DNA of 63,836 nt, filler included, from Reclinomonas americana ATCC 50394 (lineage: Eukaryota): the NCBI GenBank assembly GCA_048213135.1. It is 8 parts of 5 records of this genome, joined end to end, with 100 filler letters (N's around TTAATTAATTAA, not from the genome) between each part and the next. Parts side by side here need not be neighbours in the genome. Positions count along the whole stretch, not along the records: positions 54,942 to 60,434 come from PS015486.1; 7 more parts are not named here. One strand, 5' to 3'. Of this stretch, positions 24,901-63,413 are shown in pieces. Each line of letters begins with the position of its first letter. Positions within the stretch are counted from its first letter, which is position 1. Made by a program: the position numbers and the translations under genes. The notes beneath the pieces are model-generated. The model was not told the DNA's origin, searched no databases, and saw nothing but the letters and a program-made list of their open reading frames with translations.

Positions 24901-24947
24901 TCGCCGTCCTCGCCCTGCTCATCTGCCTCCTCTTCCTGTTCATCTAA
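18978..24947 (+). CDS. Ferlin, copy A (multi-C2, FerI, C-terminal TM; no DysF seen)
   Basis: C2 starts [133 protein letters not shown]; terminal TM helix. Confidence 0.93.
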
Positions 24948-25035
24948 CCGGTGATCAGGAGTAGAATAAAACCGCATACACTTTTTTGGTCGCACGCACA
25001 CATAGACATGAGTCTCTCTCTCTCTCTCTCTCTCT

Positions 25036-31000: not shown

Positions 31001-31316
31001 GCTCATTGCGCGTAAAGGTGTTGGCGTCGAACACACGAATCACACACGGCGTCTCCTCCAGTCCCGTATCAATCTGGAAAAACATGAGATGGTCCCACAC
31101 GACATTGGCCGCCTTCTTTGTGCCCTTGGTCTTCTGCGTCTGCTTGCCCACAGTCACACTGGCCACGGGATCCGAAGTGCCGCTCCGATCGCGACCTTTC
31201 AACTCCCGAGCCTCCAGCTATCATGCATGATCATTCAGCAATCGGGGCTCATGTCACCACAGAAAGATCAAGACAGAAAGAGAACTCACCAGCTCAACCT
31301 GCACCTGGTACGGCAT
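25036..31316 (-). CDS. Ferlin, copy B (paralogue of copy A, convergent)
   Basis: Same motif series: [108 protein letters not shown], then TAG. Confidence 0.93.
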
Positions 31317-34177: not shown

Positions 34178-36954
34178 TGTGTGTGTCAATCGTCTGTCGC
34201 TGCTGCGATGTCGATGCTCATTTGTCGGCGCGAACAGATGCAGCGTCTGTTCGCGGTCCGCTGACCGATCTCACCCAGTTGTTTGACAAGTTGCGCGACG
34301 ACACCGATGGCAGTGTGAAAAAGGTGAGAGAGAAGGGCGAGTGCTATCGCACGTCCGGTTGAATCCCTGACATTGCACCTCGCGTACAGGCCTGTGCTGT
34401 GCTGGAGAAGTGCTGCAAGGACATGAAGAGTGGCGTGCCACCGGCCGAGGACCTTCCTCGACTGCAAGAGGAGGTGGGGGCGGTGCAGACAGACATGGTC
34501 GCGTTGAGGAAGCGGTCGGCGCGTCTCGAAAACATGGTGTGCGCCGTGCTCAACCAAAAGTCGCACTGTTGCGTGTCGTCTCCGTCACGCGAGAGCACCT
34601 CTTTTTTTTTAATTTATTGGCGGTGCTGACTCGCTGTTGCAGTGGAACGCCTTTCCGAGGCGGTGATAAAGGCGGTCGCGGAGGCGCGAGATCCGTCGAA
34701 TGCACCGGCCACACGACCGCTCTCAGAGCCGCAGGCTGAGATGCGCAGCAAGATTGTGGAACGACTGCGGGTACGGCACAATCCATCGTCTCGTCTGGCT
34801 TGTGGTTGTTGTTCATTGACATGGTTGTGATTTTTGTTTCGGCAGGCGGTGAAGCGCCAAGTTGACAATGTGCAAAGTTGGCTGTCGGCCACAACACAGG
34901 AAGCACAACGAGCGTCGAGTGCCGCTTCCAGCGACTCGATTCCGCAGGTGGTTGTGCTTGTCGAGACGGCCAAATTGCAGTACGAGCTCGCCTCGCGCAG
35001 CGCCGAGGTTCTTGACAAGCTGCACAGTCAGTCTCGCAGAGTTGCGGTGATGGACAGCTTTGCGGGGGGTTATCTCGTGTCCACGGTCACTCATTTCGTC
35101 GTCGATGCAGGTGGCCGAAGGCGTGCTGAGATCGGCGCGTGGATCGATGGCCCCGAGCATCCGTGATCGGCAAGTGCCGGTGGATGTGAAACCGCGTGAG
35201 GCGCCGGCGTCGTCTGCGAAACGATCGGCCGCAGGTGCCCATCGAACTACGGCGGACAGTGTTCGACGCACGGCATTGCGGACGCTGCTCGAGAACAGGC
35301 GTGCCGAGCAGCTGCGTGTGGCGGCGCAACCAAAGCCGCTACCGGCGGGTGCCACTGCGTTGCTGGCGGCACCTGCTGCGGCCGCCGCCTCGGCCACGCC
35401 GCCACTTGCCCTCGTACCGAATCCGCTGCGTAATGCACCGGCGGCTGCCGTGGTGGCGGCTCCCGCGGCAACAGCCACGACGACGACGACGACGACGACG
35501 ACGACAATCACGAAACCAGCAACGACCACAGTGACGACCGTGAAGCCCCTGGCAACTCCACTGGCCAAGCCGCTGGTGGCGCCGGTCTCTGCCGCCGCCG
35601 CACCAGCACCATCGGCCACTGTCACCGTCGTCAAGCCGGCAACGTCGCCATCCCCGTCGCCCTTGCCGAAACCAGCAGTAGCGGCTACGCCTGCGTCGGT
35701 GTCACCGACTCCCACACCGCAGCCCGTGTCCACTGGAGCAGCGGCAGCCGCACCAGTAAGTACGGCGCCGGCCGCCAAACCGCCTCTGTCGAGCTTTGCA
35801 TTCGGCAAGCCGAACGTGCTGACTGGCGGCGTCGCCAAGCCGCTGTCCGCAACGGCAAGTGGCACACCACCAACTCTTAAGGCGTTCCCGGCGGCCACGC
35901 CCGTGACTCGGTCGCCACCGACCACAGCGCCGACTACTCCAGCCATTGTTAGTGTGATTGACGAGAGCAAGGCGCCATTCAGTCCGCAAGATGCGACTGC
36001 GGGCCGTCGCGTGAATGGCGACGGTGAGCAGAACGCGGCACCGGCATCCACTCCCTCGCTGCCGCCGCTGCCAGCCGATATCGATGACGACGCAGAATTC
36101 GACGCCGTGCTCGCCGCAGGTGACGCAGAAAGCATGTCCGCAGTACCTGGTGCGTAGTTTGTTGTCTTTTTCTCGACTGATAAGTTCTCTGACTCGTTTG
36201 TCGGACAACAGCTCAACCGATCAAGCCTCCGTCGACGACGACCACCAAACCCGCTGGCGCGCTCAGTTTCGGTGGCCTCTCACTTGGTGGTGCTGCAGGC
36301 GGCGGAAGTGCGTCGCGGGGAGCACTCAGCTTTGGAGGCGGTGGTGGCGCTGGTGGCAGTCAGTTCCCCTCGGTAGCTCGCGGTGCTTCAGCCACTATTG
36401 CCAGTCCGCTGTTCCCCAGTGGCGCCGGGCGGGGGGCTGGTTCTCTTGCCTCGCCACCGGCTGCTGGCGGCGCTTCCCCTGCCACCGGCAAGGCGTTTGC
36501 TTTCGGCCCGTCCAACCCGCTGTTGGGCGGAGCAGGCCGATCAGCTGCGCCGCCTGCTCAAACGGGCGGCTTGTTGCGACCACCGACGTTCAGCTCCTCG
36601 GCAGTGCCCGGTGTGCAACCAGGAGGTGGAGGTGGTGGTGGTGGTGGTGCTCCCGCAGCGCAGCCACGATTCGGCAGCAGCACGTTTGGCGCTGCGGGTG
36701 GTGGTGGTTTTGGCTCGAGCACGTTTGGCACCAGCACGTTTGGTGGCAGCTCATTCGGCAGCGGCGCTCCGGGTGCGTCGGCGAGACCAGTGGGCTCTTT
36801 TGTTGCGTTCCACCACTTTGTGGAGTCACAACAACCACGTCGCTCATCATCATTGTTGTTGTTGTTGTTTCACCAGGGAGGAGGACGGGGGACTGCCAAT
36901 GCGTTCTCCACACTGGCCAGTGCTGCAGCACAGCAGCGACAAGCCGAGCAATGA
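34178..36954 (+). CDS. FG-repeat nucleoporin, coiled coil plus FG tail (Nup214/Nup159-like 3' part)
   Basis: Coiled-coil exons, long PAST-rich region, repeats SFAFGKP, LSFGG, FAFGP, RFGSSTFGAAGGGGFGSSTFGTSTFGGSSFGSG. Confidence 0.65.
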
Positions 36955-37017: not shown

Positions 37018-37833
37018 TCACATGTCGTCTGACACGGGTTCCGCTCGCTCCACGTCACCATCCTCCAGATCATCGGCAGCGACCGCGTCGCCCGCCATTC
37101 CCTTTTCTACCACCACCACCACACCGCTCATGCGCGTGCCACTGGACGGCTTCCTATCGGCGTGGAAGCAGCGGCGGCACACGGCGACGTACTTGTCGGC
37201 ACCGCCAATGACCTCCACCGCACAGTCGCTGACAATGCGCTTGGAGAAGTGCGCATCCTCGCCACACGACATGCACACGGCAGTGAGCTTGACCACTGCC
37301 TCGGCCATTGGCAGCAGCTCCAGCACAGCACCGAATGGCTTTTGCTGGAAGGTGCCATCGAGGGCGGCCACAATCACCGTCTTGCCGAGGTTGGCGGCCT
37401 CGTCGCAGAATGACACCAGATCGGGGAAGAACTGACCCTCATCGATGCCAATGCAGTCGTGCGAGGCCACCAAGTGCGCTGCCTCGCTCAGTCGCTCGCA
37501 CGGGAACGCCGAGTACAGTTGTCTGTTGAGAACAGAGAGCGAGAGAGCGAGTGTGAGGTTTTCGCGCGCGCATCGCATTCGCATCATGACGTGTCTGCGC
37601 AACTGGTCGTGCGTGGCCACACAGTCGTCTGAGTACCGCACATCGCGCTTGTACTTGAGCACAAGGCACTTGCGACGCGCCAGTGTGTGTCGCTTCACAC
37701 GTCGCAAGAGCTCAGTCGACTTGCCCGCGAACATCGGGCCCAAGATCAACTGTTTGCGTGCGTGTGAGTGAGTGCGTGACAAAGAGAGAGTGTGTGAGAA
37801 TTGGCGCGAAACTTCAACACTTCCACGATCCAT
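37018..37833 (-). CDS. TK1: Thymidine kinase (TK1 family), 3 exons
   Basis: LILGPMFAGKSTELLRR, VATHD, IGIDEGQFF, VIVAALDGTFQQKPFG, KLTAVCMSC, VIGGADKYVAVCRRCF. Confidence 0.97.
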   Translation of the reverse strand: MDRGSVEVSRQFSHTLSLSRTHSHARKQLILGPMFAGKSTELLRRVKRHTLARRKCLVLKYKRDVRYSDDCVATHDQLRRHVMMRMRCARENLTLALSLSVLNRQLYSAFPCERLSEAAHLVASHDCIGIDEGQFFPDLVSFCDEAANLGKTVIVAALDGTFQQKPFGAVLELLPMAEAVVKLTAVCMSCGEDAHFSKRIVSDCAVEVIGGADKYVAVCRRCFHADRKPSSGTRMSGVVVVVEKGMAGDAVAADDLEDGDVERAEPVSDDM

Positions 37834-37882
37834 GATTGGCGCGCTCAACAGGGTTTGCGATGTGTGCGAGTGTTTGCGTTGA

Positions 37883-37892
37883 TTTTGGCGCG
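37883..37892. promoter_or_regulatory. E2F-type motif TTTTGGCGCG about 50 nt upstream of the TK start codon
   Basis: Matches TTTSSCGC; a second TTGGCGCG lies directly before the ATG. Confidence 0.4.
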
Positions 37893-37967
37893 CGCGGGCG
37901 TGGACAAACCACAATGCATTTGTCTATTGTCCCGTTGTGTTGCGCTGCGTGCAGTGAAGGGCACACA

Positions 37968-44897: not shown

Positions 44898-46900
44898 CTA
44901 TGGCCGACGAGTGGTAGTGGGTGTGTCCTCGGCAAAGAAGCTGCTGGGCTTCTCAGCAAACGGCGTCGGCTCGGGGCCCGGGTCGTCGGCCAGCGAAAAA
45001 TCGGTGGACATGCCAACGCCGGCCGTGGTGGGCGAGAAGAGATGTGCGGCGGCGTCGGCAAGACCGAGTCCTTGCGATGGCACCGTGTTGGTGGTCGGCG
45101 AGGCCAGTTCAGCCGTCTGACGCCGTGCGGCCGCTCGCGTGAGAGTGCCGGGCGACGGACCACTGACCGGCCCCTTCATCGGCTGCGCACGGCCGTGTGG
45201 ACCCGGCACCGCGATGCTCAGCCCCAACGACGGCGCACCAAGCGCGGACACCAGCGTGTTGGAGCGCTTCACTGGCGGCTGCCCATTGGCGGAGCCGCCA
45301 CCCATCGGCTCGCCATTGCGCTTGCCGAGCACACTCTCCGCCAGCATCGACGAGCTGCCGCTGGCCGACGGTGTTTCGCTGCCGGCGCTGCCAGGGAACG
45401 ACGGCCGCGCAGATTCGGCGGTGGGCGTCGGCTGTGGCGTAAACGGCGCAAACAGAACATTGGCCAGCACCGCCGCCGCCTCGGCATCGCTGACCGGCTG
45501 CTCATACGACGAGGACGACGAGGAGGTGGCGCCATATGGCGCCGGCTGTCGACCACCGCTACCGCGCCGTGCATTCGCGCGAGTTGTGCGACGACCACCC
45601 ACCGCGTCGCCATCCACGAGCATCCCATCGTCGAGCGCATGATCGCCATTCACGCGCATGGGAGCGACTGCACCATTCGCAGCACCAGCAGCAGAAGCAG
45701 ATGCACTACTGCCGCCGCTGACGCCGCCGTACCACGGAGTGACGGCGGCACCGGGTGTCTCGGCCGCCGGCATCGCCGCATCCTCATCCTCTTCCTCCTC
45801 GTCCTCCTCCTCCTCATCTTCGTCGTCGTCCTCATCGCTGTCGGACGACGCACGACGTCTCCTCGAGCCCTTACCGGCAGGCTTGCCGCGACCCTTCTTC
45901 CCACGCGTGGAGGCACGAGTCGGGGCCGGACGCGCCGCCGCCGCAGCACTGCCCAACAAGCCCAACGGCATCTGCGGCTGCGGCACCTGCTGCTGTTGCT
46001 GCGGTGGCATGGCATACGTGGCCGGGATCACACCGCCATACGGTGGCGCTCCCGGCGGCGGTGGCGGGTACGCTCCCGGTGGCGGTGGCATCCCGTACAT
46101 GGCTCCGGGTGGCATACCGAACGGCGGCATGCCAGCCGGCGGTGGTGGTGGCATGGGCATTCCACCGGCCAGCTGCATCACAGATGATGATGATGATGAG
46201 CACAGGGAGGGACAGAGAGGTAAAAGAGTGACGGACCTCATTGGGCGCCGGTGCCGCGTAATAGTGCGAATTGTGCGCCACAATGCCGGCGCGACGCGAC
46301 GACAGGTCATCGTAGTCGCCATTGGTCTTGAACTCGTGATCGCTGACTCGATCGCGCAGCCACTTCTCCATCATTCCGTTCGGATTGCCCGTGGAACAGT
46401 ACTCAAACAGCCGTCCGCTCTCATTGTACACAATCAGCTGCACCTCGGCGTCGCACAAAATCGACAGCTCCATCTGTAAAGAGAGAGAGAGAGAGAGAGA
46501 GAGTATGAGTGACTTGCGCGCCTTATTTGGGCCACCGCACGGGAACGCAACAGCCTTTTTCACAAGTCCATCCTGTTATGTGCGTGTGAGGGAAGAGAGA
46601 GACAAGAAGAGTGAGTGATTATATATACACATGCGCGGAAGGTTTGCGCGTTGCTCGGGAGCGGAAAGCGCGCGTGTATAAGAATAGCATATTGCAGACA
46701 AAAATGAAAAGATGACAGCCGCACGACAGCATCACTCTTCTCGCTCCCTCTGTACACACACAAGCACACTCTTCCTCTCTCTCTCTCTCTCACTCACTCT
46801 ACTCTCTGTACACACTCGCTCATACCTTGCGCTTGCGGAAAGTTACAGTGCGCGACTTCTCATCGTCGATCCGCTGAATCGTAATCTTCTTGCGTCCCAT
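44898..46900 (-). CDS. MADS-box transcription factor, MEF2/type II-like
   Basis: MGRKKITIQRIDDEKSRTVTFRKRK|DGLVKKA|MELSILCDAEVQLIVYNESGRLFEYCS, then Pro-rich and acidic regions. Confidence 0.95.
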
Positions 46901-47466: not shown

Positions 47467-49002
47467 ATGTTGCGGAGACTTTGTTGTCTCGCAGTGCTCC
47501 TCTGCTGCGGTGAGCCACACTCTCTCTCACTCTCACAAGACAGTCACTGTTTCCTCACTCTTTGTGTCACAGTGATTGTGGGAGCACGCGGTGGTGGACT
47601 GTCACTTGCCGCTGACATGGGTGGCATTCCCTCACAACAGCAACCTCAGGCAGAGATACATCACGAAATCGTGTGCCACGCACAGGTAAGAGAAGCAAGA
47701 GAGAAACCATNNNNNNNNNNNNNNNNNNNNNNNNNNNNNNNNNNNNNNNNNNNNNNNNNNNNNNNNNNNNNNNNNNNNNNNNNNNNNNNNNNNNNNNNNN
47801 NNNNNNNNNNNNNNNNNNNNNNNNNNNNNNNNNNNNNNNNNNNNNNNNNNNNNNNNNNNNNNNNNNNNNNNNNNNNNNNNNNNNNNNNNNNNNNNNNNNN
47901 NNNNNNNNNNNNNNNNNNNNNNNNNNNNNNNNNNNNNNNNNNNNNNNNNNNNNNNNNNNNNNNNNNNNNNNNNNNNNNNNNNNNNNNNNNNNNNNNNNNN
48001 NNNNNNNNNNNNNNNNNNNNNNNNNNNNNNNNNNNNNNNNNNNNNNNNNNNNNNNNNNNNNNNNNNNNNNNNNNNNNNNNNNNNNNNNNNNNNNNNNNNN
48101 NNNNNNNNNNNNNNNNNNNNNNNNNNNNNNNNNNNNNNNNNNNNNNNNNNNNNNNNNNNNNNNNNNNNNNNNNNNNNNNNNNNNNNNNNNNNNNNNNNNN
48201 NNNNNNNNNNNNNNNNNNNNNNNNNNNNNNNNNNNNNNNNNNNNNNNNNNNNNNNNNNNNNNNNNNNNNNNNNNNNNNNNNNNNNNNNNNNNNNNNNNNN
48301 NNNNNNNNNNNNNNNNNNNNNNNNNNNNNNNCGACTTTGGCACGCAGTCGCAGGCGGCCGACGGACATTGCATCTGCAAGGAGGACTACTATGGACCATT
48401 CTGCGATGTGGCGTGCACGGCCGAGGACACATGCACGGGGGTGAGTCGCGCGATATTTTTTGTTTCTTTCCTCTCGCCTCGTCGTGGAACTGTGGCTGAG
48501 TCGACGTGATGTGTGATGCATCGCGCAGCATGGCACCTGCGACAAGGTCTCAGGCCACTGTGTGTGCGAGCCGACCTACGACGGCGAGAACTGCGCGTCG
48601 CGCATCTGGAGCGTGAGTGTCACCGAGGGCGACACGTTTGCCATTCACTGCCCGCAGGTGGTGCGTTCCATGGGACTGAAGGTCGAGTCGGCCACGTACA
48701 GCACGCTCAACGGAGAGTGCTCGATGGACACGCACGGCATGATGAGCTCGCGATGGTGCGTTTTCGCTCTCCGCTATTTTTCCAGTGTGCGTGGTGCTCA
48801 TTATCGCGCGCGCTTGTGTAGCGACGGCAAGTCCGAGTGCGAACTTGTGGTCGACGAGGGGTCCTTGCCGAATCCTTGCGAGCACAGCGAGAAGGCAGTC
48901 AGCGCGGCAGACGCACAGGCCCCCAAACTGCTGCACGTCCGCTACCGATGCACGATTGTGGTGAAGGGAAAGAAAAAGAAGGACCACGCCGCGAGACGGT
49001 GA
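47467..49002 (+). CDS. Secreted EGF-like repeat plus SUEL (galactose/rhamnose-binding) lectin protein, spans a gap
   Basis: Signal peptide; GHCICKEDYYGPFC, CTG|HGTCDKVSGHCVCEPTYDGENC; lectin motifs EGDTFAIHCP, VESATY, DGKSEC, NPC, KLLHVRYRC. Confidence 0.7.
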
Positions 49003-49073: not shown

Positions 49074-51989
49074 CTAAAGTATGAACGTCTCCTTGTGGAA
49101 GTCGACGCGGCAATGGCTGGAAGAGTGCGTCCAACACCGTCTCTGCACATCGGTCACCAACGACGGTGGTCCACACGCCATCACTCCGACACCTGCAATG
49201 CGGGAGTTCAGCAACTGGTCACCGCCAGAAAGAGAAGGGGAAAGTAGAGGCGCAACGCTTGCTGTGGCAGTTGATTGCAGTGTCTGTGATCGTGTCACAT
49301 GTGAGCACACAAGTCTCCCACAATGAAATCGTTTGCAAAAGGTCGCTCACCGATGACTTCCAGGAAAATCGCGCGCAGATCGGGCCTGCCATCGTGCACC
49401 TCGCATGGGCAGTCGTTCCTCGCCGCGGCCACAATGTCAGCTGCGCCAACGATGAGCAATCACTCGGAGGGCACGGGTACGGGAGTGGAGGAACGCAACG
49501 ATCGCCAAACACGGACGTGAGATAAATGTCGACGGTGAACGTCAGATTGCGTCGCCGAGCCTCCTCTAGTGTACTGCGGAACCAATCGAGGCACTGGGGA
49601 GCAGCAGCAGCAGCAGTCAACACATGGTGGCGTCGCGCATGCACACGAGTGTCGAGTACGCACATTGTAGTCGCGTGCGACCCAGATCAAGCGAACACGG
49701 TGCGCCGTCGCAAACTCTTGCTGCGTGCCACCATACGACTTGGCCCAGTTGATCTGTGCTCCCGCCCACAAATGAGAACGTGAAAACATGGCGACAGCCA
49801 ACAAGTATGTGCGCTCAAACACCATGAATGAGAACGCCGACATGATGTGCGTAATGCCGATGCCACCGGCGACGAGCAGCAGATCCGAGTACTCCGACAC
49901 GGGGATCTGCGGCCGACCGTACGGACCGTCGACCAGGATGCGGACGTTCTGCGCGCAGTTTCACTTGTCAGTGGATATAGGAGGACTGAAGAGTGCACAC
50001 AGCGGAACCTGTGGGACGCGTCGTGTTGGGCTGATGAGACCCTCGGTTGCCTCGGTGGTGTCTTCTTCTGGGAGGCCGCCACCCTCTCGCTGTGCGCGCA
50101 CACACACACTCTTCTACATGAGAGATGGCGTTGCAGGCTGAAGAAAGCAACCCTCTCCCCCCACACACACCGCTGCCAGTCGCGCCAACTTGTGCGTCCA
50201 CGTTCGATCGCCCATGTTACGCACGAGGAACTTGAGCACGGTGACAGAGCCGTCGCGCAGTGGGCCATTGGCGTTGCTGAATGGGTGGATTTGAACCCTG
50301 CACGCCAGGATCGGTGAGCCAAAGCTGCTCCGGTACACGCGCGCGCGCACGTACACGCGGACGACATACCACGACAGCTCGGGCACACTCAAAAAGTAAA
50401 ACTGTCCCGGGCGCAGGCCGCGGAACGGAGTGCCGTCGCGTTTCCACACTTCCAGTTGCGTCACATCGCCACCCAGGAGGCGCAGTTGCACAGCGTAACG
50501 GCGCGAGCGCACCATGTTGACGATACGCAGGGCCAGATCAATCAACAGAAGAATGGCACCCTGCAACCGGGCGCGGGGTCACACAACACGCACGCAAGCA
50601 CGCACACATCGGGTGCGAGGGGAAAATGCGGACGCTCACCGGCAGCAGGAACAGCAGCACGCCTTTTACGTGCAACGCTGCAAACACCTGCAAAGTGTCG
50701 GTGTCAGTGATCGTTGGAGGCGACTCGATGTGTTCTCCTTAGAGATATTACCGCCAGCACAATCGCCAGGAACGGATGTGGCAGTTGGAAGACTTCCCAC
50801 AGACGCCGTCTGAAGAACGGCAGCGCCAACAGCGCCATGAGGACGGCCACGACCCATGCACAGAAGCCAGCCATGGGCGGGTGATGTCCCTCTGCATGCA
50901 TCTCATCAGCAAGGCGATCGACACGGCCAGCGACACAAAGACAAACAAACCCCACTCGAAAAGCAGGCCAACGCCCTGCGACGGCGCCAAAATCACGTCA
51001 GCACGTGTGGTAAGACAACACAAGAAAATACAGCACGCAGAGGCAACGCACATCGACTGCCGCATAACCGAGACCGTGCAGACCGGCCACAATGATGAAC
51101 GAGCGAGCGATCCTGCACACCCGACGCGCATCAGCAACGGCAATACATGCCACACACAAGAAAAAGCAATCGTACCATCGATGAAACTTGATGGCGCGCT
51201 CAAACGAGATGCCAAACAGCGGCAGCAGCAGCGAGTTGCGAGTCACGGGAATCAGCAGGAATCCACTGCACGAGAGAGAGACCATCTTCAACGCTCGCAG
51301 CACCACAAGAGAAAGAGAGAGAGAGAGGAATGGAGCGCAACAGCTGATACTCATTGACCTTGCCGAGGCCAAAGAACGCCGCCTCTGCAGTGAACACATC
51401 CGACTCCTGCGACGCATAAAAGAGTCACCATCTCTCGTCGCCCGCCAAGAAAACGAGAAGAATCAATGAACGCACTCCGCTCATCTCGTGCTTCCACATC
51501 AACACCATGCTGACGACGTACAGCAGCAGCATGATCAGCTCGCCCACAGACAAGTCAAACAAAAACTGCACGCCAGTCAACCGAAGCCACGACTTTTGCT
51601 CGGGAATCCGCCCGACTTTCTGCACTCCACCTATCGTATAAGAAACACGTACACACACAGAGAGAGAGAGAGAGAAAGAGAGAGAGACTGACCCTGTGCA
51701 GTGTCAACGAGGCAAACCAATTCCACGGTCGCAAGAACTGCACTGCAATGCCTGCAGAGATCACTGCAAGCGCAGACACTGCGAGAAAGATCGCGGCAAG
51801 AGGCCCATCGCCTTTGCCTCCACCTTCATCATCATCATCATCTTCGCCATCCTGTGTGAGTGAGAGTGGGAGTGAGTTGCGCGCGAATCTCTGTTGTGAG
51901 AGAAAGAGAGAGAGACGCACATGCGCGTGCACAGTAACACAGAGGATGAGCAGCAGCAGCAGCAGCAGCACACAGGCAGCACGCCGCAT
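49074..51989 (-). CDS. Ferric-chelate reductase / NADPH-oxidase family flavocytochrome (FRO/FRE-like)
   Basis: Signal peptide; LLIPVTRNS, GISFERAIKFHRW, FFRRRLWEVF..H, PGQFYFL, HPFS, VDGPYG, LLVAGGIGIT, VMACGPPSL, FHKETF. Confidence 0.9.
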
Positions 51990-52046
51990 GAGCGCGTGCT
52001 CGATCAAAGTGCACACAACAACACAAACGGGGGTGTTCGAGCATCA

Positions 52047-52117
52047 GTCACCCTTGAATTTTTCGCACGGGAACCCTTAAGTTTTCTTGGGCCTCTTCAT
52101 GTCACCCTTAAGTTTTT
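52047..52117. promoter_or_regulatory. Three imperfect copies of GTCACCCTTAAGTTTT upstream of the ferric reductase
   Basis: GTCACCCTTGAATTTTT at 52047, GAACCCTTAAGTTTT at 52071, GTCACCCTTAAGTTTTT at 52101. Confidence 0.5.
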
Positions 52118-52823
52118 GACATCGTTGCACGCATGGATCCCGGGCAGCTGCAGCCTCACCGCGGTTCCGTCGGGTGCCGTCTTGTGTCCAAGGGTGTGGA
52201 GGAATGCATCGTCAACCGTACCTGCAACCCCACTGGCCGCGCGCAGCGCGCGCTCCGTTTTGCTGAGCTATCGACAACGACACTGTTCAACACTCACGTG
52301 CTAGAGCAACTGGCCTTGCCCGACTGTGGAAATCGCGCAAGTCTCACTGTTCTCATCGCAGACGAGGATGGAGTGTGCACCTTCTCTCCTGCGGAAATGT
52401 TGCGTTTGCGCCAGACTTGTTCAGTAACCACTGCAACTGCACACACACACACATGCAATCAAGCACACAAGCACATGCACAGCTGGCACAGTGTTAATTC
52501 TCCGCACATTTTGCGCAGCGGCTCACTGCATTCCTCGTCCCCAGCCTCCCATGCAGGGCGGAGCATGCAGGCCAACCGTATGACTATGACCTTGTACCGT
52601 GGCGACCTACCTGGCAAAGTGACCTCCTACAGCAGGCACAGAGATCGGTGCTGTACCTTATCGGTGAGTGGTGGTTCATTTGCGTCTGTCGCACTCAAAT
52701 CACGTGCACAACAGTGGTCTGCACTGCTGCTCCACGCGAGCGCAGTGTCAACACCGTACTGTCTTATCGTGGTGGAGCTGGTGGTGGGTTCCATTGGCAA
52801 GCGCGTTCGCGAAGGAGACGGCG

Positions 52824-54063
52824 ATGAAGATGGGCAGCGGGAGAAACGCAAATTCGTCGCAGTCGAACTCCTCGGGGTCCGCCTCTGGCTCTGGTTCCTC
52901 TTCGTCCTCCAGGGTCGATGCGGCTGCCGCAGCTATCGCAGAGAGACAATCAAATTCCGAAATCGCAGCAGCAACGAGCACGCTGTCGTCGATCTCGGAT
53001 TTCAGCAACTCTCCGCAGGTCCGATCGACGCGAAGTATGCACCGTCTGCATCCAAAGGCACCATCTGGTGGTTTGTCATCGGCAAGACAGTGGCACCTTT
53101 CAACCAACTATCTCAGCGGACCGCAGTCGTCGGGTGCGCCCGCTGCGCCCGTTGCACATCCCGGTTGGCTGCCAATCGGGACATACGGACTACCGCGGTG
53201 CTCGCCGCAGCACCGGCCGCACAAGCATCTGCGTCGGGATCGACGCCTCAGCCCTTGCTGGCAACGCAGCTGCAGCGCCCTTCGGCGGCGGTCGCAGCTT
53301 CTCTGCCAAATGCATGGACTTTCACGGTCGGCCGGTCGCAACGCCCTGTGCTCATTCCTGCAGGTGGAAGGGGTGCAGCGCTTCGGAATGTCGTGAGTAG
53401 CCAGACAGTTCTGGTTCCCGTCCACCGCTCTAGCCCTGTCGGCTCCCACGGCAAGCAGCCGTCACCGTTGTCGGCATTGGTTCGCAGTATCGATGTCGAT
53501 CGGTCGAGTCCACATGTGCACAGCTAGCTGCGGCAGTGCCACCGCTGCAACTGCAGCCGGCGCCTGCGCCTCCACTTTGGCCACCGTCCGTGCCACGGCC
53601 ACCACCGCCATCGCCGCCACCACCGCCACCACCATCACCGCCGCCATCACCGCCGCCACCACCACCAGCACCGCCACTGGATGCCACTCGCTGTGCCGGT
53701 GCAGATGCAGCTGCACCCGAGTCGCCGGAACCTCGTCTGCCCATCGGCCTGCCACGTGCACCACCGCCTCCGCCGCTGCTGCTACAAGTCACACCCGGTG
53801 GCTCGGGGGCAGCTGGGAGTGCGCATGCAGGGGCGCGTGCTGCTACTGCGAGTCTGACGCATCTCCCTCCGACGTCGATACCGGCATACGGTGTTGTAGG
53901 CGTCGACCCGCGGCCGGCGGCGGTGTACCACAGCGAGGACAGCTGCGGCGGCGAAGAGCCAGACTTGTCAATGGAGAATTTCACCTGCGGATCCGCGAAG
54001 CGAAATTTTTTACATCAGCAAGAGCAGATATTTGAGCAGATGATGCTTGTCGATGAGGAGTAA
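52824..54063 (+). other. Unresolved Ser/Pro-rich coding-like region with frame changes (possible pseudogene or repeat remnant)
   Basis: Three successive low-complexity ORF pieces in different frames; I could not find convincing introns joining them. Confidence 0.25.
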
Positions 54064-54564
54064 ATTGGCCTCGTGGCTGTTGAACTGTGCAGTTGAATTG
54101 ATACAAAACCGTACCGGATACGAATAGAAAAGAATGAATAATCAGATCGATCGGTCGACTGGAATGCTTGTGAATTTGAGTCTTCTGTAGATTGGCTCCT
54201 GGTTACAAACCATCACAGCCAACCATCAGAAACGCTATGAGTGACTGCTGTGAGTTAAATGCAAGGCATGGGCATTCTCGCCGGGAAGATTTCATCGAAA
54301 TACAAGCTTGAAACGGACCGTTTCCGCCAGAACTTGGCGAATTTGGCCGCCGAAACGGCCTGGCTGGCTGGTGTGGATTTGTTAGTTACCCCTAGACTAT
54401 TTTGCCGAAGGCACCGCTAACTTTGCTGAACCCGGGCTCCAATGGGCCTCAGTTACCCCTTAACAAAATGTGAACCAGGGACACGCTCGAACACCCCCAC
54501 AAACTGTGACAAATGCGACAGTGAGTCACCGCACTGTCACCCACTGACTCTCTCTCACTCACAC

Positions 54565-54841
54565 ATGGGCAACGCATGCTCATGCGGCTCACGCGGACCC
54601 TCCGGTGGCGCCTTATACACAGCGCACACTGCCATGATGTCCGCGCCTGTGCTCACCAGCACAGCTGCGGATGCGGAGGACATTGAAGATGAAGAGGATG
54701 AGGAGAATGACACAGAGACTGCGGATGAATCGTCGCGCTCAGTGGCAGTGGACAGCTCGGCGACGCGAGCAGCTCCGACGAGGCGGCGGCAGCGGCGGAC
54801 GTTGCATCGTCATGTGGCGGTTGAGTCTTTCCTCAAGTGTG
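54565..54841 (+). CDS. N-terminal fragment with a predicted myristoylation/palmitoylation start
   Basis: MGNACSCGS..., acidic tract, open into the gap. Confidence 0.55.
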
Positions 54842-54980
54842 NNNNNNNNNNNNNNNNNNNNNNNNNNNNNNNNNNNNNNNNNNNNTTAATTAATTAANNN
54901 NNNNNNNNNNNNNNNNNNNNNNNNNNNNNNNNNNNNNNNNNATGTGCGAGAGTGCATGGATGGGCGAGACGTGCTCACTC

Positions 54981-57900
54981 TTCCGTCTGACTCGCTACAG
55001 AGGAGCCTACGTGTCCTTCGTTGTCGGCGTCGGCGGCGTCGGCGGAGGATGTGGTGCGGGCCGAGTGGCTGCTCGGTCGCAGTATCCTGCAATGCTTGCT
55101 TGCTGCGCATCAGCACCAGCTGCGGTCGATCGCGTTCCCGCTGCTGGGCACGACATTCCCCGTGTCTCGGGCGGCTGTTTCGTCGCTTTGTTTCTCGCAC
55201 ACACTGGACGATTTTCCGCCTGCGGCTCACTTTCTGCACGTGCGCAGGCCGTCTTCTTTGAGACTGTACTACGTTTCCTCAGCGATCACAGCTTCACTCC
55301 CGTGGCGTGCATACGCCTGGTTGACACGCGTCGCGACGTTGTGCATGTCATGTGCCAACAGGTTTGTGTGGAAAAGTGTGTCTTGTGAAATCTCGAATGC
55401 GCTTCTCACCCGTGCACATGCGAGATGCAGTTTGACCGCCGTGTTGGCTCGTCATTTGACGCTCGCTCCTCAGGCCTCTCCTCCACCGGTGCCTCGTCGA
55501 CCATTTCACTCTCCTCAGTGCCCGTATTTGATTCGTCGACCGGTGGCCTGCTGGCTCACTCAAGTGGCGGCAGCGGCAGCGCCAGCAGTAGTGTTGGTGG
55601 TGGCCTCGGTGGCAGCGCTAGTGGCAGCGGTGGGGGTACAGCAAGTGGAAACGGCGGCTCATCGCATCGTCGTCTGCGCGGTGCGGCACCGGTGAATCCC
55701 GACATGGCGCTCTCGCTGAGTGGTCGTGTGGGCCAGCAGCGTGCAGAGGTGGAGAAGCTGGCGCGCACTTGTCGTGTGCTCAGTCGATGGCAGCGAGCCG
55801 GCTCCGTCTCCGAGGCGCACCAGTCGGTGGTGGACGCGCAGTTCGATGTGGAAGACAAGGAATCCATGCTGTTGTCGGCGGTCGCCGCGCTTCGTCGTGA
55901 ACTACTGCAGCAGCCACCGCACGAGGAGGGTCTCACGCCGGCGCTGTCGGAGCTCGGGAAGCAGCGAACGTTGGCGGCGATGGCTCTCGAGCAATCGCTG
56001 CAGGGATTGTTGGATGCGCTGGAGTCGGAGCGCCGCGATACGACGGGCGAGCTCGACGCATTGCAGCGTGTGTGGTCCGACATTGTGTCGCGCCACTCCA
56101 CGCCCATTCTCTTCAACGGCGACATTTCGGACTCGTCAGACACAAGTGTGGCCTCCAGTCCCACTCACGCTCTCTCCGATGTCGGTGAGTGAGGTCGCCA
56201 CACTCACTGGTTTTCTTTATCATTCGGCACCACTCACACCACTCATGAATGCAGAGACACGACGGGTGACTCGTGATGGCATTCGGTGGATGCATGCTCA
56301 TGCTGACGCGATTCGACTCGCCGCCGAACGCACACAGCGCGTATGTGCCGAGGGTGGCGAGCTGTCGGAGTGGTTGGAGGCGCTGCAGGACGAAGATGGT
56401 GTGTTGTCGCATGCGCTGACGGCGGGAGTGGCACTGTGGTCCGAGCATGGTGCGCGGTTACGCGGAGCCGTGCAATGTGGCATCGATGAGGTGCGTTTGC
56501 TTGTGGTGGAGTGACTACACCGATTGACGACTGCGTGTGGCTGACTTGGGTTTCTCTCAACAGATGCATCGGCGCCTTGATCGCATTGTCACCGCGGAGC
56601 GAGTGGCCAAGGAGAAGAGATTACAGGCGAGCAAGCATGCGGCGCGACAGCATCGCATTCGACTGGAGGGCGCACTGCACGAATTGAAGCGCCTGGAGTC
56701 CAAGGCCGCACCGGTTCGCTTACTCACAGTATGAGAGAGGTGGTGTGGGAAACTCATGAAGCTGGCTGGTATGCAGGTGGCCTCGGTGGTGTGTGCCGAT
56801 GGAGAGCCGCTGACTCCGCTGTTGGATGTGGTCGCCGGTGACGACGACGAGCACTTCCCCGATGCGCGACTGCTTCGACTCGACGCTGTCAAGGTGAAGT
56901 GATGCACTCATGCATGCACGCACGGAGGTGATTGCTGAAACCACACGCGCACCGTGCAGCAACTGGGCTACATGGTGAAGCTGGTGGCCGCAATGCGCAC
57001 TATGGATGAAATGTTCCCGTACGTATACGCCGTGCGTTATCCTGACATTGCAGTTGGCGAGGTGCGACGCGGTGTGATGTCGAATGCGTGCGTGCGTGCA
57101 TGAGTCGCACTCACACAGCACGTGGTGTCGTAGGTACAATTGAGTCCGCCAGTGACCATGTTCTACGAGGCACTGGTGGCGGAGAGCCGTTCTACCAACG
57201 GCGATGTCTCACATCTGGTGGACGAGTTCACTGTGTACATTGCGGCGTCGCGGCTCGGTGCCGGCATCAAAGTGGAGGTCGACGACTTCTGGGAGGAACT
57301 GCGCGCAGCCGTGTTGTACAATACGAATCGCGATTGGCTGCATAGGGCGCCAAGCACCGCCGTGTCGGTACGCGTCACATGTCGCCGACAAGCTGTGTGT
57401 CGGCAGCGTATCTTACTTGAATTATGTGCAGGGAACTGTGTTGTGGGATTCACTCACCCAGTGGTTGTCGCTTGGACACCCGATCCGCATCCTGTCTCCA
57501 TCGTTCCACGCCGTCGATAGCAAGTTCCTCGACATGCTGCTGACTGCACGCACACAATCGTCGTCGTCTGCCGTCACCTCCACCGGCAAACTTCTTGCGG
57601 TCTCTGTTCTCGGAACCAGCGGCAGTGGCAAGTTGAGTGTTTGGCCGTCCATTAGTTTTCCCAGCCCGACTCACTCAGCGTGCAACATGCAGGTCGACTC
57701 TTCTCAGGGAGCTCTTCCGCTGCGATTTCGAGGTGTCAGACGTGTCACGCAAGCGCGGCGTCATGCTGACACACAAGCCCGTCACTGAGGTTGCTCGCGT
57801 GCGTGATGTGGTTGTGATGGACACGGATGGCCTCGAGTCGACTACCGACCAGGAACGGTTCGTTCTCTCTGTCCTTTTTTGTTGCATGGCAGATCCACTT

Positions 57901-60434
57901 ATACTGTGTTTGTATTCGACGAACAGGTGGAACATGCAACGACTGGCGGTCATGATGCTGGCCGTGTCCAACGTGGTGTTGCTGAATGTGAGCAGTGCGC
58001 GTCTGGAGGAAGATGCTGAGACACTGTGCGAAGCCTGTATGGTGGCACTCAAGCAGGTGAGTGGGACGAAAAGAGAGAGGGAGAGGGAGAGAGAAAGTCT
58101 CGTTTGCTGACGCAGTGCGTGCAGAGTGTCGTGCGCATTGTTCCACCACGCTTCTTCTTCGTGGTCCGTGATGCCAGTGAACTCGCCGACTGGACTGCCA
58201 GTATCCAGCAGACGCTGAGAAGAGCGGCTGAGCGGCATCACATCGATCTGGAAGATCTGCCATTCCTCACCAGTGACGATAGTGTGGTCCACTTGCCGTC
58301 GGTGCGTGGCCATGATGCTTCTTTGTTGTTACTCACTGTGAATGATTTCACTCATGCTGGTCTCTTGTCGCGGGCACACAGCTGCTGGATTTGGACTCGA
58401 CCGCTTGCAGTCTGCTCGAGGATTTGCGGACGACCATCTTTTCGTATGCGAGCTACACTGGTGAGTTCGCACGCTCGTGAACAACCAATCCCCACTGATC
58501 GCGTGCTCATATCTATGTGCACAGCATGGACTGGTCTCTATCGCGATACACTCGTCTGGTGATTCCGATCTCTTTCTGCCCGAATCACTACAACAACAAC
58601 TCACTTTGTGCTTTCTTTCCTACAGGTCCGATCAACGAGACCGCACGTGGTCGCCGGTGCTCGCCGCTCTGGGCCGACCACTGCGCGACGAAGAAGCGCA
58701 TGATTCGCCGTCGCCCGACGCTTCCTCTGGAAGCGAGTTGGCGAGACTGCGTGAACGAGCCGGTGTGATTCAAGAAATGTTGGATAAGCAGTCGTCGCTC
58801 GTGTCGGCACTCTCCAACGTGCGCTCGCTTGCTCGCTCCTCGCCGTGTGTTCTACGAGTCGACGCACTCACTGTTTCCTCATCTGTGCTGTGCAGTTTAT
58901 CGAGACGCACGAGGCTCGCTTGTATGCCATTCGAGACGGCATCGTGGAGACGAGTCGCTTGCGGGAGGCATTCGACACGCTGCGAGTTTCGTGTGCCACC
59001 ATCGTCGACGCTGTTTGTTTTCGTCGCTGATGTAGTGTCGCAGAGCCTCTTGCCGAGCCACCGCGAGCTGCAGCATGCTCTTGCGCTGTGCGAAGTCAGC
59101 TTGACTGACGACAGCGCGCTGCCGAGCGACGATCGCAATGTGCTGAACGTACACCGCAGCTTGCCGCTGGGCCAGCTCATTCTCACCGCCATGAGTGCCA
59201 ACAATGTGTTTGAGTTGCGTACACAACGAGCGCCTCTGGTGTTGCTGTCACCTCACTCACGGTACACGCTGTACAGGGCCACCGAAGCTTATGCGGCGTG
59301 CGGCCTCGACACTGTCCGCGGTACGTTCCGTCAATACGAGGAGACTTCGACGGCGTTCGCTTCCGCCCTGACCGTGCGAGGTGCCCGGCTGACGCCAAGT
59401 GAGTTTCTTCATTGCATACTGCGCGCTGTGCTCGGACTCATCACAGTTGACGCTGCCGCAGTCCTCCTGCTACCGATTCAGCGCATGCAACAGGTGAGAC
59501 TGGCGATCAAATGCCATGTTGCCCGTTTGTTTCGTGTCCTGACGTGTGCGGCCGCAGTACCATTTGTTGCTGGAGCGTGCTATCCGACACACGCCGTCTC
59601 TGTTCCGCACGTACATGCCGATCCGCTCGCCAGACGGCACGTACGGACTCAGTGACAGAATGGATGAAGTGCCGGAGATTGAGCGTGAGAGGCAAGCCTA
59701 TCACTTTGTGCTGCAAAGCGTGAAGGAATTGGAGCTGCGCATGGTTGCGCCAGAGCTGCAAGCATCGCTGGCCTTGCCACCGTCGCGCGGTGATTCTCGT
59801 CAGCTTGTGCGTCACTCTCCGCTAAAGTTGTCGACACCGGCACGACTCTTCCGACACGGCGACACGACGCCTGTGGAGCTGGCTCTCTTTTCCGATTGTT
59901 GCGTGCTCGGCAAGTCCGCCGGCGATTCGTGCATGCTGCTCACGGTGTGGAACGCAGATTTCGTGTTCCGGCGCCCTGTCAGTGCTCGGAAACGGCAGGG
60001 TCGAGAGACAGCCACAGTGTGGCCACTGTCGCAAGTCGTATCGTGTGCAGAAGCCGGTGAACCGCCAGCTGGTGAGTTCCGCGCTGCATGCGCGATGTTG
60101 CTGTGCGTGCTCATTTGGTGATGTGCATGTAGGCCTGAAAGATGCCCGGCTCGGCGGCTTCTGGTTTGCCGTGCAATGCGGCGTGCCAAAGAGCAAGACG
60201 TGCTTGTTTTGGTGCCACGATGAGCGAGAGGTAACTTACTCAAGTGCCTCCTCTTTCTCTCTCTCTCTGTCTCTTCCTCGAGCCTTACGTTGTGTTTCCA
60301 CCCCTCTGCGGCAGGCCAAAGAGTGGGTAAACGACGTCAATCGGTTATTGCGTGCGCAGCGCCGCTTGTCTGACACATCCCTGAACGGCTTCTCCATCTC
60401 ACCCGATCAACGACGAGAGAGAAACAGCGGGCCA
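54981..60434 (+). CDS. Large fusion protein: Macro domain - coiled coil - VLIG/RHD3-type P-loop GTPase - DH (RhoGEF) - PH; both ends in gaps
   Basis: Macro SILQCLLAAHQHQLRSIAFPLLGT; GTPase VSVLGTSGSGK|STLLRELF, VVMDTDG, LAVSNVVLLNV, FFVVRD; DH LLLPIQRMQQ|YHLLLERAIRHTP; PH LALFSDCCVLGK, AKEWVNDV; frame continuous through hand-spliced junctions. Confidence 0.7.
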
Positions 60435-60534
60435 NNNNNNNNNNNNNNNNNNNNNNNNNNNNNNNNNNNNNNNNNNNNTTAATTAATTAANNNNNNNNNN
60501 NNNNNNNNNNNNNNNNNNNNNNNNNNNNNNNNNN

Positions 60535-62531
60535 GGAGCGCCTGCCGGCGGATCCCACCAGACCAGGCAGTCACTCGGGTGGTCACGGTACGCACCATGT
60601 AGCCATGCACACTCTATTTCATAATCATCTCACTGTCTCCTCGCGTTCCAGAGCGTCTGTTCGAGTTCCCTCCGATTCAGCTTCGCAAGTCGTTGCGTCT
60701 CCCGCTCTCGTTCCGTTGGCAGCGGCCGTCGTCTGACTCCTTATCGTTGCACAGCACACCAATGGCGCACCCGATGATGGCCCACGATTCATTGGGGTCG
60801 CTGACCTCGCCGGATCTGGAGGGGGCGGAGCAGGAGGCGCGTGAGTTTGTCAACAAGTTGAATGTGAATCTGCCGGCGGTGAACAGCCGCGGACCAAAAT
60901 CGAGGAGTGTCGGACCGACGCCGCCAGCCAGCAGCCGCGGTGGACCGCCAGTGTCTGCTGGTCGAGTGGTGGGTGGAGGCGGCGCGGGGCAATCGGCCGC
61001 CGCCGCCGCCGCCGCTGGTGCCGCAGGGCGTCCATCTATCGCCAATGTCCGCGCTGGGGCTCGCGGCGCGGTGTCGATTCCACAGCCTCCGGCGGTGGCG
61101 CAACGGCGGCAATCCACTGTCGCTGATGACTCTCCGCCGCTGGTGCTCTCAGATGCTGGCGACTCGGATACCATGGTGAGTGTGCTCGCAACGCCGATTT
61201 CGCTTGCGTGCTTTCTCTTCTCACTCGAGCTTGACAGCCGGACAACGAGACGCCGTCGAGTGTGGCCATGGCTGGTGCAGGTCGGAAGCCGCACCACATT
61301 CCGCAAAAGAGGCGGTTGACCCGCCCCTCGGGCCCCACCATTGTCATCAACAACGGATCTCCACCGAGCAAGTTGCGTCGCCCGCATCGATGCTCTTCGC
61401 ACACAAGGATTTTTCGTTCTCACTCTTTTTTTCCGCTTCACAGAGCAAGTCCATCGCTCGCCACACCATCATTTATGGCCAACGAGCCGCCGGCGGCCGC
61501 GGCAGGAGCCGGTGCAGCGGCCGGGAGGAACCGTATTGTGGCCAATGCGCCGACGGTGGCGCCTCACCGCAAGCCGACTCGCGTGGTCGGCTATGCTGCC
61601 ATTCATCCAACGCAGATGGTGTTCCCAGGCGACGCGGTCGACTCGGAAGACGAGGCTGACGCGGCCGCCGTGATTCCTCTCAGTGGGGTATGTTTTCTCC
61701 ACCATGGTTCTCTTTCTCAACCATTCACTCATCGCACTTGCCTCAGCCGGCCAAACCCGTCCAACCAGTGGGACGTCAGGCTGGTCGAGGGGCCGCCGCT
61801 CCGCGTGGTCGTGTCCGTGCCGGTGTTCGACTGATGGCCAAGGCGGGAGTGCCGGATGGTGTTGGCAAGATCGAGGTGTGTTCAGTTCGGCATGCCGGGT
61901 GGACACACAGTGAGTAGCATGGCTTCTCATTGCGTATGTGTGTGTGTGCAGAGTCCCGACGACAGCACCGGCTCCGACAGCGATGTTGGCGAGCAAGATG
62001 TGCCCGTGGTGGAACCCACAGGCCATGCTGCTGCCGCCCGAGTGTCTGCGGCCTTGCGCAACGGGGTGAGTCGATTGTCGCCCGCCCTCCCACTCCTCCC
62101 TATCTCACTCATTATTTGTGCTGCCCTCCCTCCGCTGCAGCGCGCACCACGGCGGATGAATGCGAATCCACAGACCAAGAGCTCCAGTCCAGTGGTGCAG
62201 CGCGTGGAGAACGGCTCGGGTGGCTCGGGTGCCAGTGGCGCAGCCACTGGCAGCAGCGGCGACAGCGGCAACGGTCGCGGTGGTGCAGCCTCTCTGTCAC
62301 CCGTGCGTAAAGCGGGTGGCGGGCGCAACCGCCTGGCCGACGCCAACCGCAAGCTCGTCTCCATTTACGGTGGCGATCCACTCGGTCCGAAGTCCAAGCG
62401 CGGACGCGCTGCGGCCATGGCCCGCGCCGCCATAGCCGCCCGCTCTGCCGCGCAGGACGTCTCCGCCGATCTGGAGGACGCCAGCGAACCCGGTCCATCC
62501 GACATTAGCGCTGCGCAATCAGAAGTCGACT
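60535..62531 (+). CDS. Disordered Ala/Gly/Ser/Pro-rich multi-exon fragment, possibly the tail of the upstream DH-PH gene
   Basis: GC-rich exons with GT-AG introns; no recognisable domain. Confidence 0.45.
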
Positions 62532-62550
62532 GTTGCGTTTCTTGATTGAG

Positions 62551-62552
<2 letters not shown>

Positions 62553-62630
<78 letters not shown>
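62553..62630. repeat. (GA)n microsatellite
   Basis: Uninterrupted GA run of about 75 nt at a contig end. Confidence 0.95.
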
Positions 62631-62633
<3 letters not shown>

Positions 62634-62816
62634 GNNNNNNNNNNNNNNNNNNNNNNNNNNNNNNNNNNNNNNNNNNNNTTAATTAATTAANNNNNNNNNN
62701 NNNNNNNNNNNNNNNNNNNNNNNNNNNNNNNNNNTTTTATTGTGGGTCGCGCATTGCCTTGATTCATTGGATCGTGTCTCACATGTTTGCATGCAGACGG
62801 AACTGGCGACACACAG

Positions 62817-63413
62817 TGTCAGCAGTCCGCGCAACCAGTCGGCGTCGGCAGGAAGCACACGCTTCGAGTCACGCCCAGTGAACGACGGGCAGAAGATGGA
62901 GATGATTTTGAAGGCGGAGCCTGGCGAGGACAAGATGTTTGCGGCCAAGCAGCGCGTGGAGGCGCCAGTGAGCGAGGAGGCCACGGTTTGTCTCTTTGTA
63001 GTTTGCATTGTGACAGGAAGGTGATCCTCATTATTCATGGTTTATAGTTCCCCCGGAAACACACTCGTACGGTCGAGACGATTCGTCGTGATTCACACGA
63101 CTTGATTCGGGATCGCTCGGACGAGAACCTGCAACGAAAGATGTTTGACCGACGCAAGGCTGGCGATTTTGCACCACAGTTGCGATGACTCTTCTTTCTT
63201 TGTTTGTGCATCTCGCTTGGAGCTCAGTATCCGCTGCACACAGATCTCGCGACATTATCTCTCAACCCGAACAAGTTTCGGCACCGGCATCACCACGTCG
63301 AGCGGCCACGACCAACACGGAGGACGGCTTGAAGCGCAAGATCCGAGAAAAAGTCAACCAGGCCGGATCGAGTGCTGCCACAGTGTTCCGGACACTCACG
63401 CGCGGCAAGGACA
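62817..63413 (+). CDS. Internal exons of a hypothetical protein
   Basis: Three in-frame exons ending LKRKIREKVNQAGSSAATVFRTLTRGKD, possibly leading into an EF-hand-like segment. Confidence 0.45.

Follow-up and report, generated by a model that had tools for sequence, protein, structure and literature searches.

Can a single protist gene join a Macro domain, a VLIG-type large GTPase and a RhoGEF module, and what would such a protein do? The question is raised by a locus at 55001..60434 in a 63,836-nt stretch of the Reclinomonas americana ATCC 50394 genome (GenBank assembly GCA_048213135.1), the whole of which is referred to here as the window. An original prediction made from the DNA had described the locus as a fusion of a Macro half, a coiled coil, a large-GTPase domain and a DH-PH tandem, possibly an ADP-ribose-sensing defence protein or one of cytoskeletal signalling. 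On the gene model described below, one gene is predicted to encode a Macro half, a helical linker, a VLIG-type G domain and a DH-PH tandem, in that order. The combination of known domains appears to be real, is apparently undescribed and probably makes a multi-pseudoenzyme. All three domains look degenerate, with key working residues lost, and the DH-PH and Macro assignments, which fall below cut-off, are weaker than that of the VLIG-type GTPase. With about even confidence, the product would be a pseudo-GEF scaffold that binds GTP, hydrolyses it poorly and keeps Rho/Rac at membranes.

Continuity of the gene

The setting is an intron-rich genome with short introns, and the window contains several assembly gaps, two of which bound the sequenced part of the gene.

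55001..60434, plus strand: sequenced part of the gene; 22 exons, 21 GT-AG introns of 58-84 nt, 1335 codons, both ends open
55001-55176, 55248-55361, 55431-56184, 56255-56490, 56564-56713, 56777-56893, plus strand: exons 1-6
56960-57061, 57134-57367, 57432-57631, 57693-57857, 57927-58056, 58125-58301, plus strand: exons 7-12
58382-58460, 58525-58558, 58626-58818, 58896-58985, 59044-59213, 59277-59398, plus strand: exons 13-18
59462-59493, 59558-60071, 60133-60230, 60315-60434, plus strand: exons 19-22
54842..54941, no strand: assembly gap preceding the sequenced part, its true size not fixed by its 100 nt
54565..54841, plus strand: candidate first coding exon, acidic, then Arg-rich, ahead of the gap; link to the gene putative
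60535..63400, plus strand: putative C-terminal tail of several exons, coding resuming mid-exon past the second gap

The proposal that one continuous spliced frame runs over the Macro half, the G domain and the DH-PH tandem stands: the 1335 codons contain no stop, against 27 and 38 stops in the other two frames of the identical splice path. For a coding test, 6978 nt of the window's other genes were used to train a 3-periodic codon model, by which the modelled frame is the best of six in 19 of the 22 exons (about 4 expected by chance), namely exons 1-11 and 13-20, which span the domain junctions. The GC content at third codon positions (GC3) is 0.69, compared with 0.73 in the training set. The 21 introns have a CAG acceptor in 19 cases (background 0.35), a G at donor position +5 in 14 (background 0.29) and a branch-like motif in 17 (background 0.11), counts that are not independent because the splice sites were chosen by eye with such signals in view. 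Exon 5 has an alternative donor 15 nt downstream that leaves the frame unchanged, and a frame reading from 55001 into exon 2 without intron 1 was rejected, having no Macro motif and a lower coding-model score. The end of the G domain, as placed by profile alignment, and the first DH helix both fall in exon 15. From this DNA-level model we infer a single transcript over the 22 exons.

The main alternative at this level is two genes, the first a Macro gene whose end lies in exon 2 or the linker, the second a GTPase-DH-PH gene downstream of it. When exon 2 is read on into intron 2, a stop is met at 55386 and an in-frame ATG follows 39 nt on, and very short intergenic spacing is possible in this window. 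Intron 2 nevertheless carries a CAG acceptor, a good donor and, at -26, a branch-like motif, and its removal leaves the frame intact; in each of exons 1-9 the joined frame is the one that scores best; neither AATAAA nor ATTAAA occurs within 55001-60434; and 39 nt would leave little space for a 3' end and a promoter. A division into two genes is thus unlikely.

Both ends of the predicted protein would lie beyond the gaps. A zero-length join over the upstream gap gives a stop or the wrong frame, so that the gap must hide at least one exon; it would also hold the N-terminal half of the Macro domain, if that half exists. In the candidate first exon the coding frame is best by a small margin (-23.8 vs -24.6 in the coding model), with two candidate starts, one at 54565 and the other at 54634 after a possible 102-nt 5' intron (stretch 54513-54640). 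The former begins Met-Gly...Cys-Ser-Cys, which we take to resemble a myristoyl/palmitoyl signal. The second gap (60435-60534; again 100 nt that do not fix its true size) ends the sequenced part. The tail beyond it, of ∼700 aa, is Ser/Pro/Ala/Gly/Arg-rich and of low complexity, the four ORFs put through Pfam yielding nothing under E 0.13, and is probably the C-terminal end of the product. The full protein may exceed 2000 aa if the coding sequence beyond both gaps belongs to it.

Upstream, a DNA-transposon-like element of 2470 nt (52029-54498), with perfect 14-nt terminal inverted repeats, a 6-nt target duplication and subterminal repeats, has inserted where the starts of two genes lie head to head. 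None of the ORFs in it, including a proline-rich one that ends at 54063, has a Pfam match. With the element discounted, the start of a minus-strand ferric-reductase-like gene and the candidate start at 54565 are ∼100 nt apart. A low-GC stretch at 53951-54300 was considered as a promoter and rejected, as it lies inside the transposon.

The VLIG-type GTPase domain

57164..58644, plus strand: VLIG/URGCP-type G domain, ∼aa 560-895, with a firm core at aa 638-812
57612-57696, plus strand: G1, split by an intron, with Gly at the third variable position
57751-57753, plus strand: G2 column, Lys
57820-57831, plus strand: G3, DTDG
58167-58172, plus strand: G4, RD

The G1, G3 and G4 motifs, like the CR1 helix of the DH domain described below, lie where the first reading had placed them, and the broad GB1/RHD3/VLIG-like class that it had named can be narrowed to the VLIG/URGCP type. 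For reference sequences, a G1 pattern returned seven loci, six of them cyanobacterial VLIG-like genes (one broken) and one a Sey1-like fragment; Pfam confirmed the three VLIG-like genes submitted and the Sey1-like fragment. An alignment search listed 120 of 6930 VLIG/URGCP family members, the top matches being animal and cyanobacterial, with protists crowded out. The VLIG profile was built from 120 sequences, 115 of these listed members with a recognisable G1 and five cyanobacterial genes; as retrieval relied on shared words, the reference set leans towards the consensus. Against the gene model this profile scores 36.7 bits over aa 638-783, where the best of 500 locally shuffled copies reaches 0.4, and a profile comparison with hhalign gives a probability of 96%, collinear over ∼aa 560-895 (at most 2% in 20 shuffles).

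Scored against the 120 VLIG references one at a time, the G1-G4 core reaches 24.3-37.4 bits; a single Sey1-like reference (n=1) gives 15.1 bits, under all 120, and two viral dynamins give 5-7 bits; a further scan for Sey1-type references returned only the gene already in the set. With full-length VLIG profiles, no part of the model outside the G core is matched, and neither is the upstream ORF or the tail; as modelled, the predicted protein has a VLIG-type G core but lacks the remaining parts of such a protein. Other searches point to the wider class. In the ESM Atlas, the G-domain exon evidence falls to GBP/RHD3/VLIG clusters at 0.87-0.90, and Pfam, which was run on exon or ORF pieces with all domain scores under the curated cut-offs, gives RHD3_GTPase (E 1.1e-4, 22.1 bits) and URGCP_GTPase (E 0.0031, 16.7 bits) on a read-through fragment. 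A sequence search of the G-domain fragment against the PDB gave 0 matches.

Several motif residues differ from the VLIG references. The third variable P-loop position is Ser in 120/120 VLIG references and Gly here (T-S-G-S, compared with x-Q-S-S/T in VLIG G1); the G2 Thr, present in 119/120, is Lys here, so that its absence from the locus, noted at the outset, holds. The G4 motif is H/Y-Q/R-N in 118/120 references, and the RD found here is seen in none of the 120. The terminal GKS of the P-loop and the G3 DxxG are intact. In dynamin-type GTPases a P-loop Arg or Ser and the G2 Thr are catalytic, a dynamin mutant of the G2 Thr is impaired in catalysis and not grossly in nucleotide binding, and GBPs and atlastins have RD as their G4 (PMC5084822). 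The G domain is therefore read as one that probably binds GTP and hydrolyses it poorly. Among 19-residue hydrophobic windows the top value, 1.89, is located inside the G domain; no window exceeds it elsewhere, which argues against an atlastin/Sey1-type membrane anchor in the sequenced part.

As an observation on the reference genes, Cyanobacteria encode VLIG/GVIN-like giant GTPases of ∼2300 aa, with URGCP and URGCP_GTPase in the three that were scanned. The corresponding scans of viral contigs gave mostly short P-loop ORFs and two distinct dynamin-like genes, or nothing.

L122:996-7976, L123:2126-9025, L126:837-7934, L127:615-4847 and L128:870-7934: cyanobacterial VLIG-like genes; L124 is a broken copy, and L128 has an additional N-terminal MACPF match
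L012:3833-5755 and L044:2291-4255: dynamin-like genes on viral contigs, L012 a full dynamin by Pfam

The DH-PH tandem, the Macro half and a possible mechanism

58747..59764, plus strand: degenerate DH (RhoGEF) domain, ∼aa 930-1160
58774-58800, plus strand: CR1 helix, with Thr-Glu replaced by Lys-Gln at 58786-58791
59395-59593, plus strand: CR3, recognisable
59798..60359, plus strand: PH domain, ∼aa 1172-1310, from the ESM Atlas on exon 20
55003..55361, plus strand: putative C-terminal half of a Macro domain, PARP14/macroH2A-like, aa 1-96, the exon 2 share assigned by eye only
55431..55700, plus strand: Ser/Gly-rich low-complexity linker, aa 97-186
55710..56713, plus strand: helical stretch, probably a coiled coil, aa 190-476, judged only from a crude heptad score

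In the case of the DH domain, the references come from a CR3 pattern that returned 30 loci on prokaryotic and viral contigs, of which 20 were kept by eye; all 20 match Pfam RhoGEF, 19 of them above the cut-off. The resulting profile scores 15.1 bits against the gene model (best of 500 shuffles -0.1), and hhalign gives 78% (E 1.9e-5). For the PH domain, the ESM Atlas relates exon 20 to an SOS1/NGEF-like PH cluster at 0.95 (175 shared features) and to a RhoGEF cluster at 0.94. The originally proposed domains thus withstand a profile check in part: purpose-built VLIG and DH profiles beat shuffled sequences, but the Pfam pieces all stay below cut-off and no exon or ORF piece matches RhoGEF or PH. 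A sequence search of exon 20 against the PDB gave 0 matches, and a single-sequence AlphaFold model of it has a pLDDT of 34.8, at which a fold search is meaningless.

The Thr-Glu pair already reported missing from the first DH helix is indeed absent. The CR1 Thr (13 of the 15 references covering the column) is Lys943 and the CR1 Glu (14/15) is Gln944, while the helix-6 Asn (14/20 references) has no counterpart in either alignment register, and aa 1040-1222 contain no Asn at all. Key catalytic roles in DH domains are assigned to the CR1 Thr and the Asn-Glu pair (PMC13327543). With P-loop Ser, G2 Thr, CR1 Thr-Glu and helix-6 Asn all lost, the suspicion that both the GTPase and the DH are degenerate is upheld; the DH is probably a pseudo-GEF, and Rho activation, the known role of DH-PH tandems, is unlikely because the catalytic residues are gone. 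A RhoGEF that is divergent but active, its output under the control of the large-GTPase switch in the same chain, would fit the preserved DH-PH order, CR3 and spacing, and amoebal RhoGEFs are found fused to other GTPase-type domains (PMC5499878, supplement). The replacement of the CR1 Thr by Lys, together with that of the CR1 Glu and the helix-6 Asn-Glu, makes this reading improbable.

Some of the DH domains found by the pattern searches (L129-L157) are joined to DnaJ, kinase or RasGEF domains; the genomes carry the labels Coxiellaceae, Berkiella, Legionella, Chlamydiae, Oligoflexia and others, and the genes are either eukaryote-like effectors or contamination. Sey1-like and DH genes (L125, L139, L161) lie on contigs of one assembly labelled Gammaproteobacteria and are probably eukaryotic contamination.

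The Macro assignment rests on exon 1, which matches Pfam Macro at E 0.0013 and 19.1 bits, below the cut-off of 22, and for which 8 of 10 matches in a PDB sequence search are PARP14 or macroH2A, all weak (E 0.04-0.98). Compared with these two, loop 2 (55144-55164, after the SIAFP strand) has lost three residues and with them its glycines. The loop-2 motif G[V/I/A][Y/F]G, which helps to hold the pyrophosphate and distal ribose (PMC6500376), is missing in the visible half; loop 1 and the adenine-binding Asp would fall in the upstream gap. The suggestion of ADP-ribose sensing is weakened by this deletion. Two bacterial Macro proteins gave no significant match to the gene product, and a phage search with the Macro exon gave no match.

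For the coiled coil the outcome is mixed. Two heptad windows, at aa 247 and 367, are equalled by 0 and 1 of 500 shuffles, a figure uncorrected for picking the best windows, and three further windows by 22-34 of 500. The score is crude, and no Pfam match in the region exceeds its cut-off.

How could a protein built from three such domains work? The G domain would still bind GTP through the kept GKS, DxxG and RD, and its hydrolysis would be slow or nil with the G2 Thr and the P-loop Arg or Ser lost, so that it would remain GTP-bound, in the G-to-G dimerising state typical of the dynamin superfamily. The DH-PH tandem would bind a Rho/Rac GTPase and membrane lipids without catalysing exchange, and Rho/Rac would be localised, sequestered or presented rather than switched on. 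The Macro half would serve as a protein-interaction module, its ADP-ribose binding weakened or altered. The net result would be an oligomeric, membrane-associated adaptor tuning Rho-dependent actin or membrane remodelling.

Several points weigh against this scaffold reading or the gene model beneath it. Its functional steps are all deduced from missing residues, no ortholog was found in sequence searches and the model rests on genome sequence. Exons 12, 21 and 22 fail the coding test, the modelled frame ranking 2nd, 4th and 3rd. Gene starts ∼100 nt apart are possible in the window once the transposon is discounted, and the missing long spacer is then weak evidence for one gene, so that the case rests on splice signals and frame. 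Pfam prefers RHD3 over URGCP_GTPase on the G-domain fragment, and the RD-type G4 also points to RHD3/GBP; the flanks of the G domain are singly weak, being equalled by 7, 83, 68 and 33 of 1000 shuffles. In Irga6 the corresponding P-loop residue is also Gly and a Glu stands in for the G2 Thr, yet the protein hydrolyses GTP (PMC5084822); here the switch-I Arg-Lys-Arg or Ser712 could substitute in like manner. The CR3 match is circular because the DH references were picked by a CR3 pattern; with CR3 left out, 9 of 1000 shuffles equal the score of the N-terminal DH helices and 2 of 1000 that of the last helix.

The loss of key residues in all three domains could also reflect drift in a decaying fusion under relaxed selection, silenced perhaps by the transposon in a shared promoter. 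The 2.47-kb terminal-inverted-repeat element 66 nt ahead of the first candidate ATG and the failure of sequence searches to find a relative would agree with decay, but 1335 codons without stops or frameshifts, 21/21 canonical introns and a GC3 like that of other genes speak against it. A frame of this length that stays open at ∼20% identity to the VLIG and DH families argues for continued selection, and decay is very unlikely.

A role in defence has also to be weighed. In a guard-type sensor, the pseudo-DH-PH would hold Rho/Rac as bait, the Macro domain would read ADP-ribose that a microbial enzyme had attached to the bait or a neighbour, and the VLIG core, like GVIN1, would oligomerise on the intruder or vacuole. 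In favour, GVIN1 forms a coat on cytosolic bacteria and blocks their actin tails (bioRxiv 2025.03.24.645074), the reader-type PARP14/macroH2A domains are those closest to the Macro half, and the occurrence of DH domains in genomes with the labels Coxiellaceae, Berkiella, Legionella and Chlamydiae may mean that Rho signalling is contested in protist hosts. With Macro loop 2 broken and the other VLIG domains unmatched in the model, the upstream ORF and the tail, this sensor is doubtful, and ADP-ribose sensing and defence roles are unsupported. Its fuller form, a single-chain protist Rho guard in which the dead DH-PH is an integrated decoy for Rho/Rac, the Macro domain reads microbial ADP-ribosylation and a VLIG core locked to GTP builds a coat or a platform for signalling, is quite unlikely; if true, it would tie GVIN1-type immunity to Rho surveillance outside animals.

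Neighbouring genes and comparison with known systems

Pfam on 48 ORFs of the window identifies a pseudouridine synthase, an importin-beta N-terminus, five C2 ORFs, a thymidine kinase, an SRF-type factor and ferric-reductase pieces. The multi-C2 genes look like ferlin-type proteins.

1858-3012: pseudouridine synthase
∼8500-13400, minus strand: importin-beta-like gene
∼19600-33450: two convergent multi-C2 genes that look paralogous; Pfam finds C2 only
36193-36951: Phe-Gly-rich ORF
37021-37923, minus strand: thymidine kinase
44901-46575, minus strand: SRF-type factor
48517-48999: EGF-containing ORF
∼49460-51990, minus strand: ferric-reductase/Nox-like gene

The rarity claimed for the architecture is borne out within the searches made. 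No relative emerged from word-based protein searches, either among 294 candidates for the G fragment or among 1063 for exon 20, which is weak evidence, and phmmer with the G fragment against 1.84 billion representatives gave one match, a repetitive tick protein judged spurious. A metagenome scan returned two loci matching over 22 residues only, which were treated as chance. With no sequence relative found, the architecture is not traceable by orthology. The literature search, which covered few subscription papers, found no description of a fusion of Macro, VLIG-type GTPase and RhoGEF.

The nearest designs in a survey of the Dbl family are a dictyostelid CH/DH/PH/Dynamin protein and DH/PH/Ras-like proteins (PMC5499878). 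The former, listed in the supplement, likewise carries a DH-PH tandem and a GTPase-superfamily domain in one chain, but there the extra domain comes after DH-PH, and the catalytic DH residues are missing here. The visible supplement text contains no A1pp, GBP, RHD3 or VLIG, and the visible matches to 'macro' (2 of 21) are taxon names. As in Dbl-family RhoGEFs generally, DH is followed by PH; unlike them, the Reclinomonas tandem lacks the CR1 Thr-Glu and the helix-6 Asn-Glu. Amoeboid-protist RhoGEFs shuffle domains freely, which tempers the novelty of what is here one gap-bounded gene with an ortholog not found. The Macro half aligns with the reader domains of PARP14 and macroH2A in a helix, the SIAFP strand and the F-P that follows, and differs in the three-residue deletion that removes the loop-2 glycines.

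With the RHD3/Sey1, atlastin and GBP GTPases, a group that also takes in the soluble PTF1-3/PPP1 class (PMC9407449), the domain shares RD as its G4, set in F-V-x-R-D. Sey1 is the nearest solved structure to the VLIG family profile, and none of the profile's 19 solved-structure matches is a chain named GVIN, VLIG or URGCP. Unlike RHD3/Sey1 and atlastin, the sequenced part has no stalk or transmembrane pair after the G domain and the DH begins directly (the tail was not scanned for transmembrane segments).

The closest likeness is probably to the VLIG/GVIN1 and URGCP giant GTPases (URGCP_GTPase, PF25683), with which the domain shares the G1-G4 core, the length of switch I and an upstream G-x-P block. 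It departs from them in having lost the G2 Thr and the P-loop Ser and in its G4, RD instead of H-Q/R-N. The sequenced parts match neither the URGCP/first-LG region nor the GVIN1 C-terminal domain, and RhoGEF or Macro is carried by 0 of the 120 listed family members (animal and cyanobacterial top matches of 6930). VLIG/GVIN GTPases are poorly understood, an antibacterial role in humans having been demonstrated only recently. A VLIG G core that stands alone, coupled to a Rho-binding module, would suggest that the core is reusable as a module and point to a tie between these GTPases and actin control, and it offers a compact VLIG-type domain for biochemistry.

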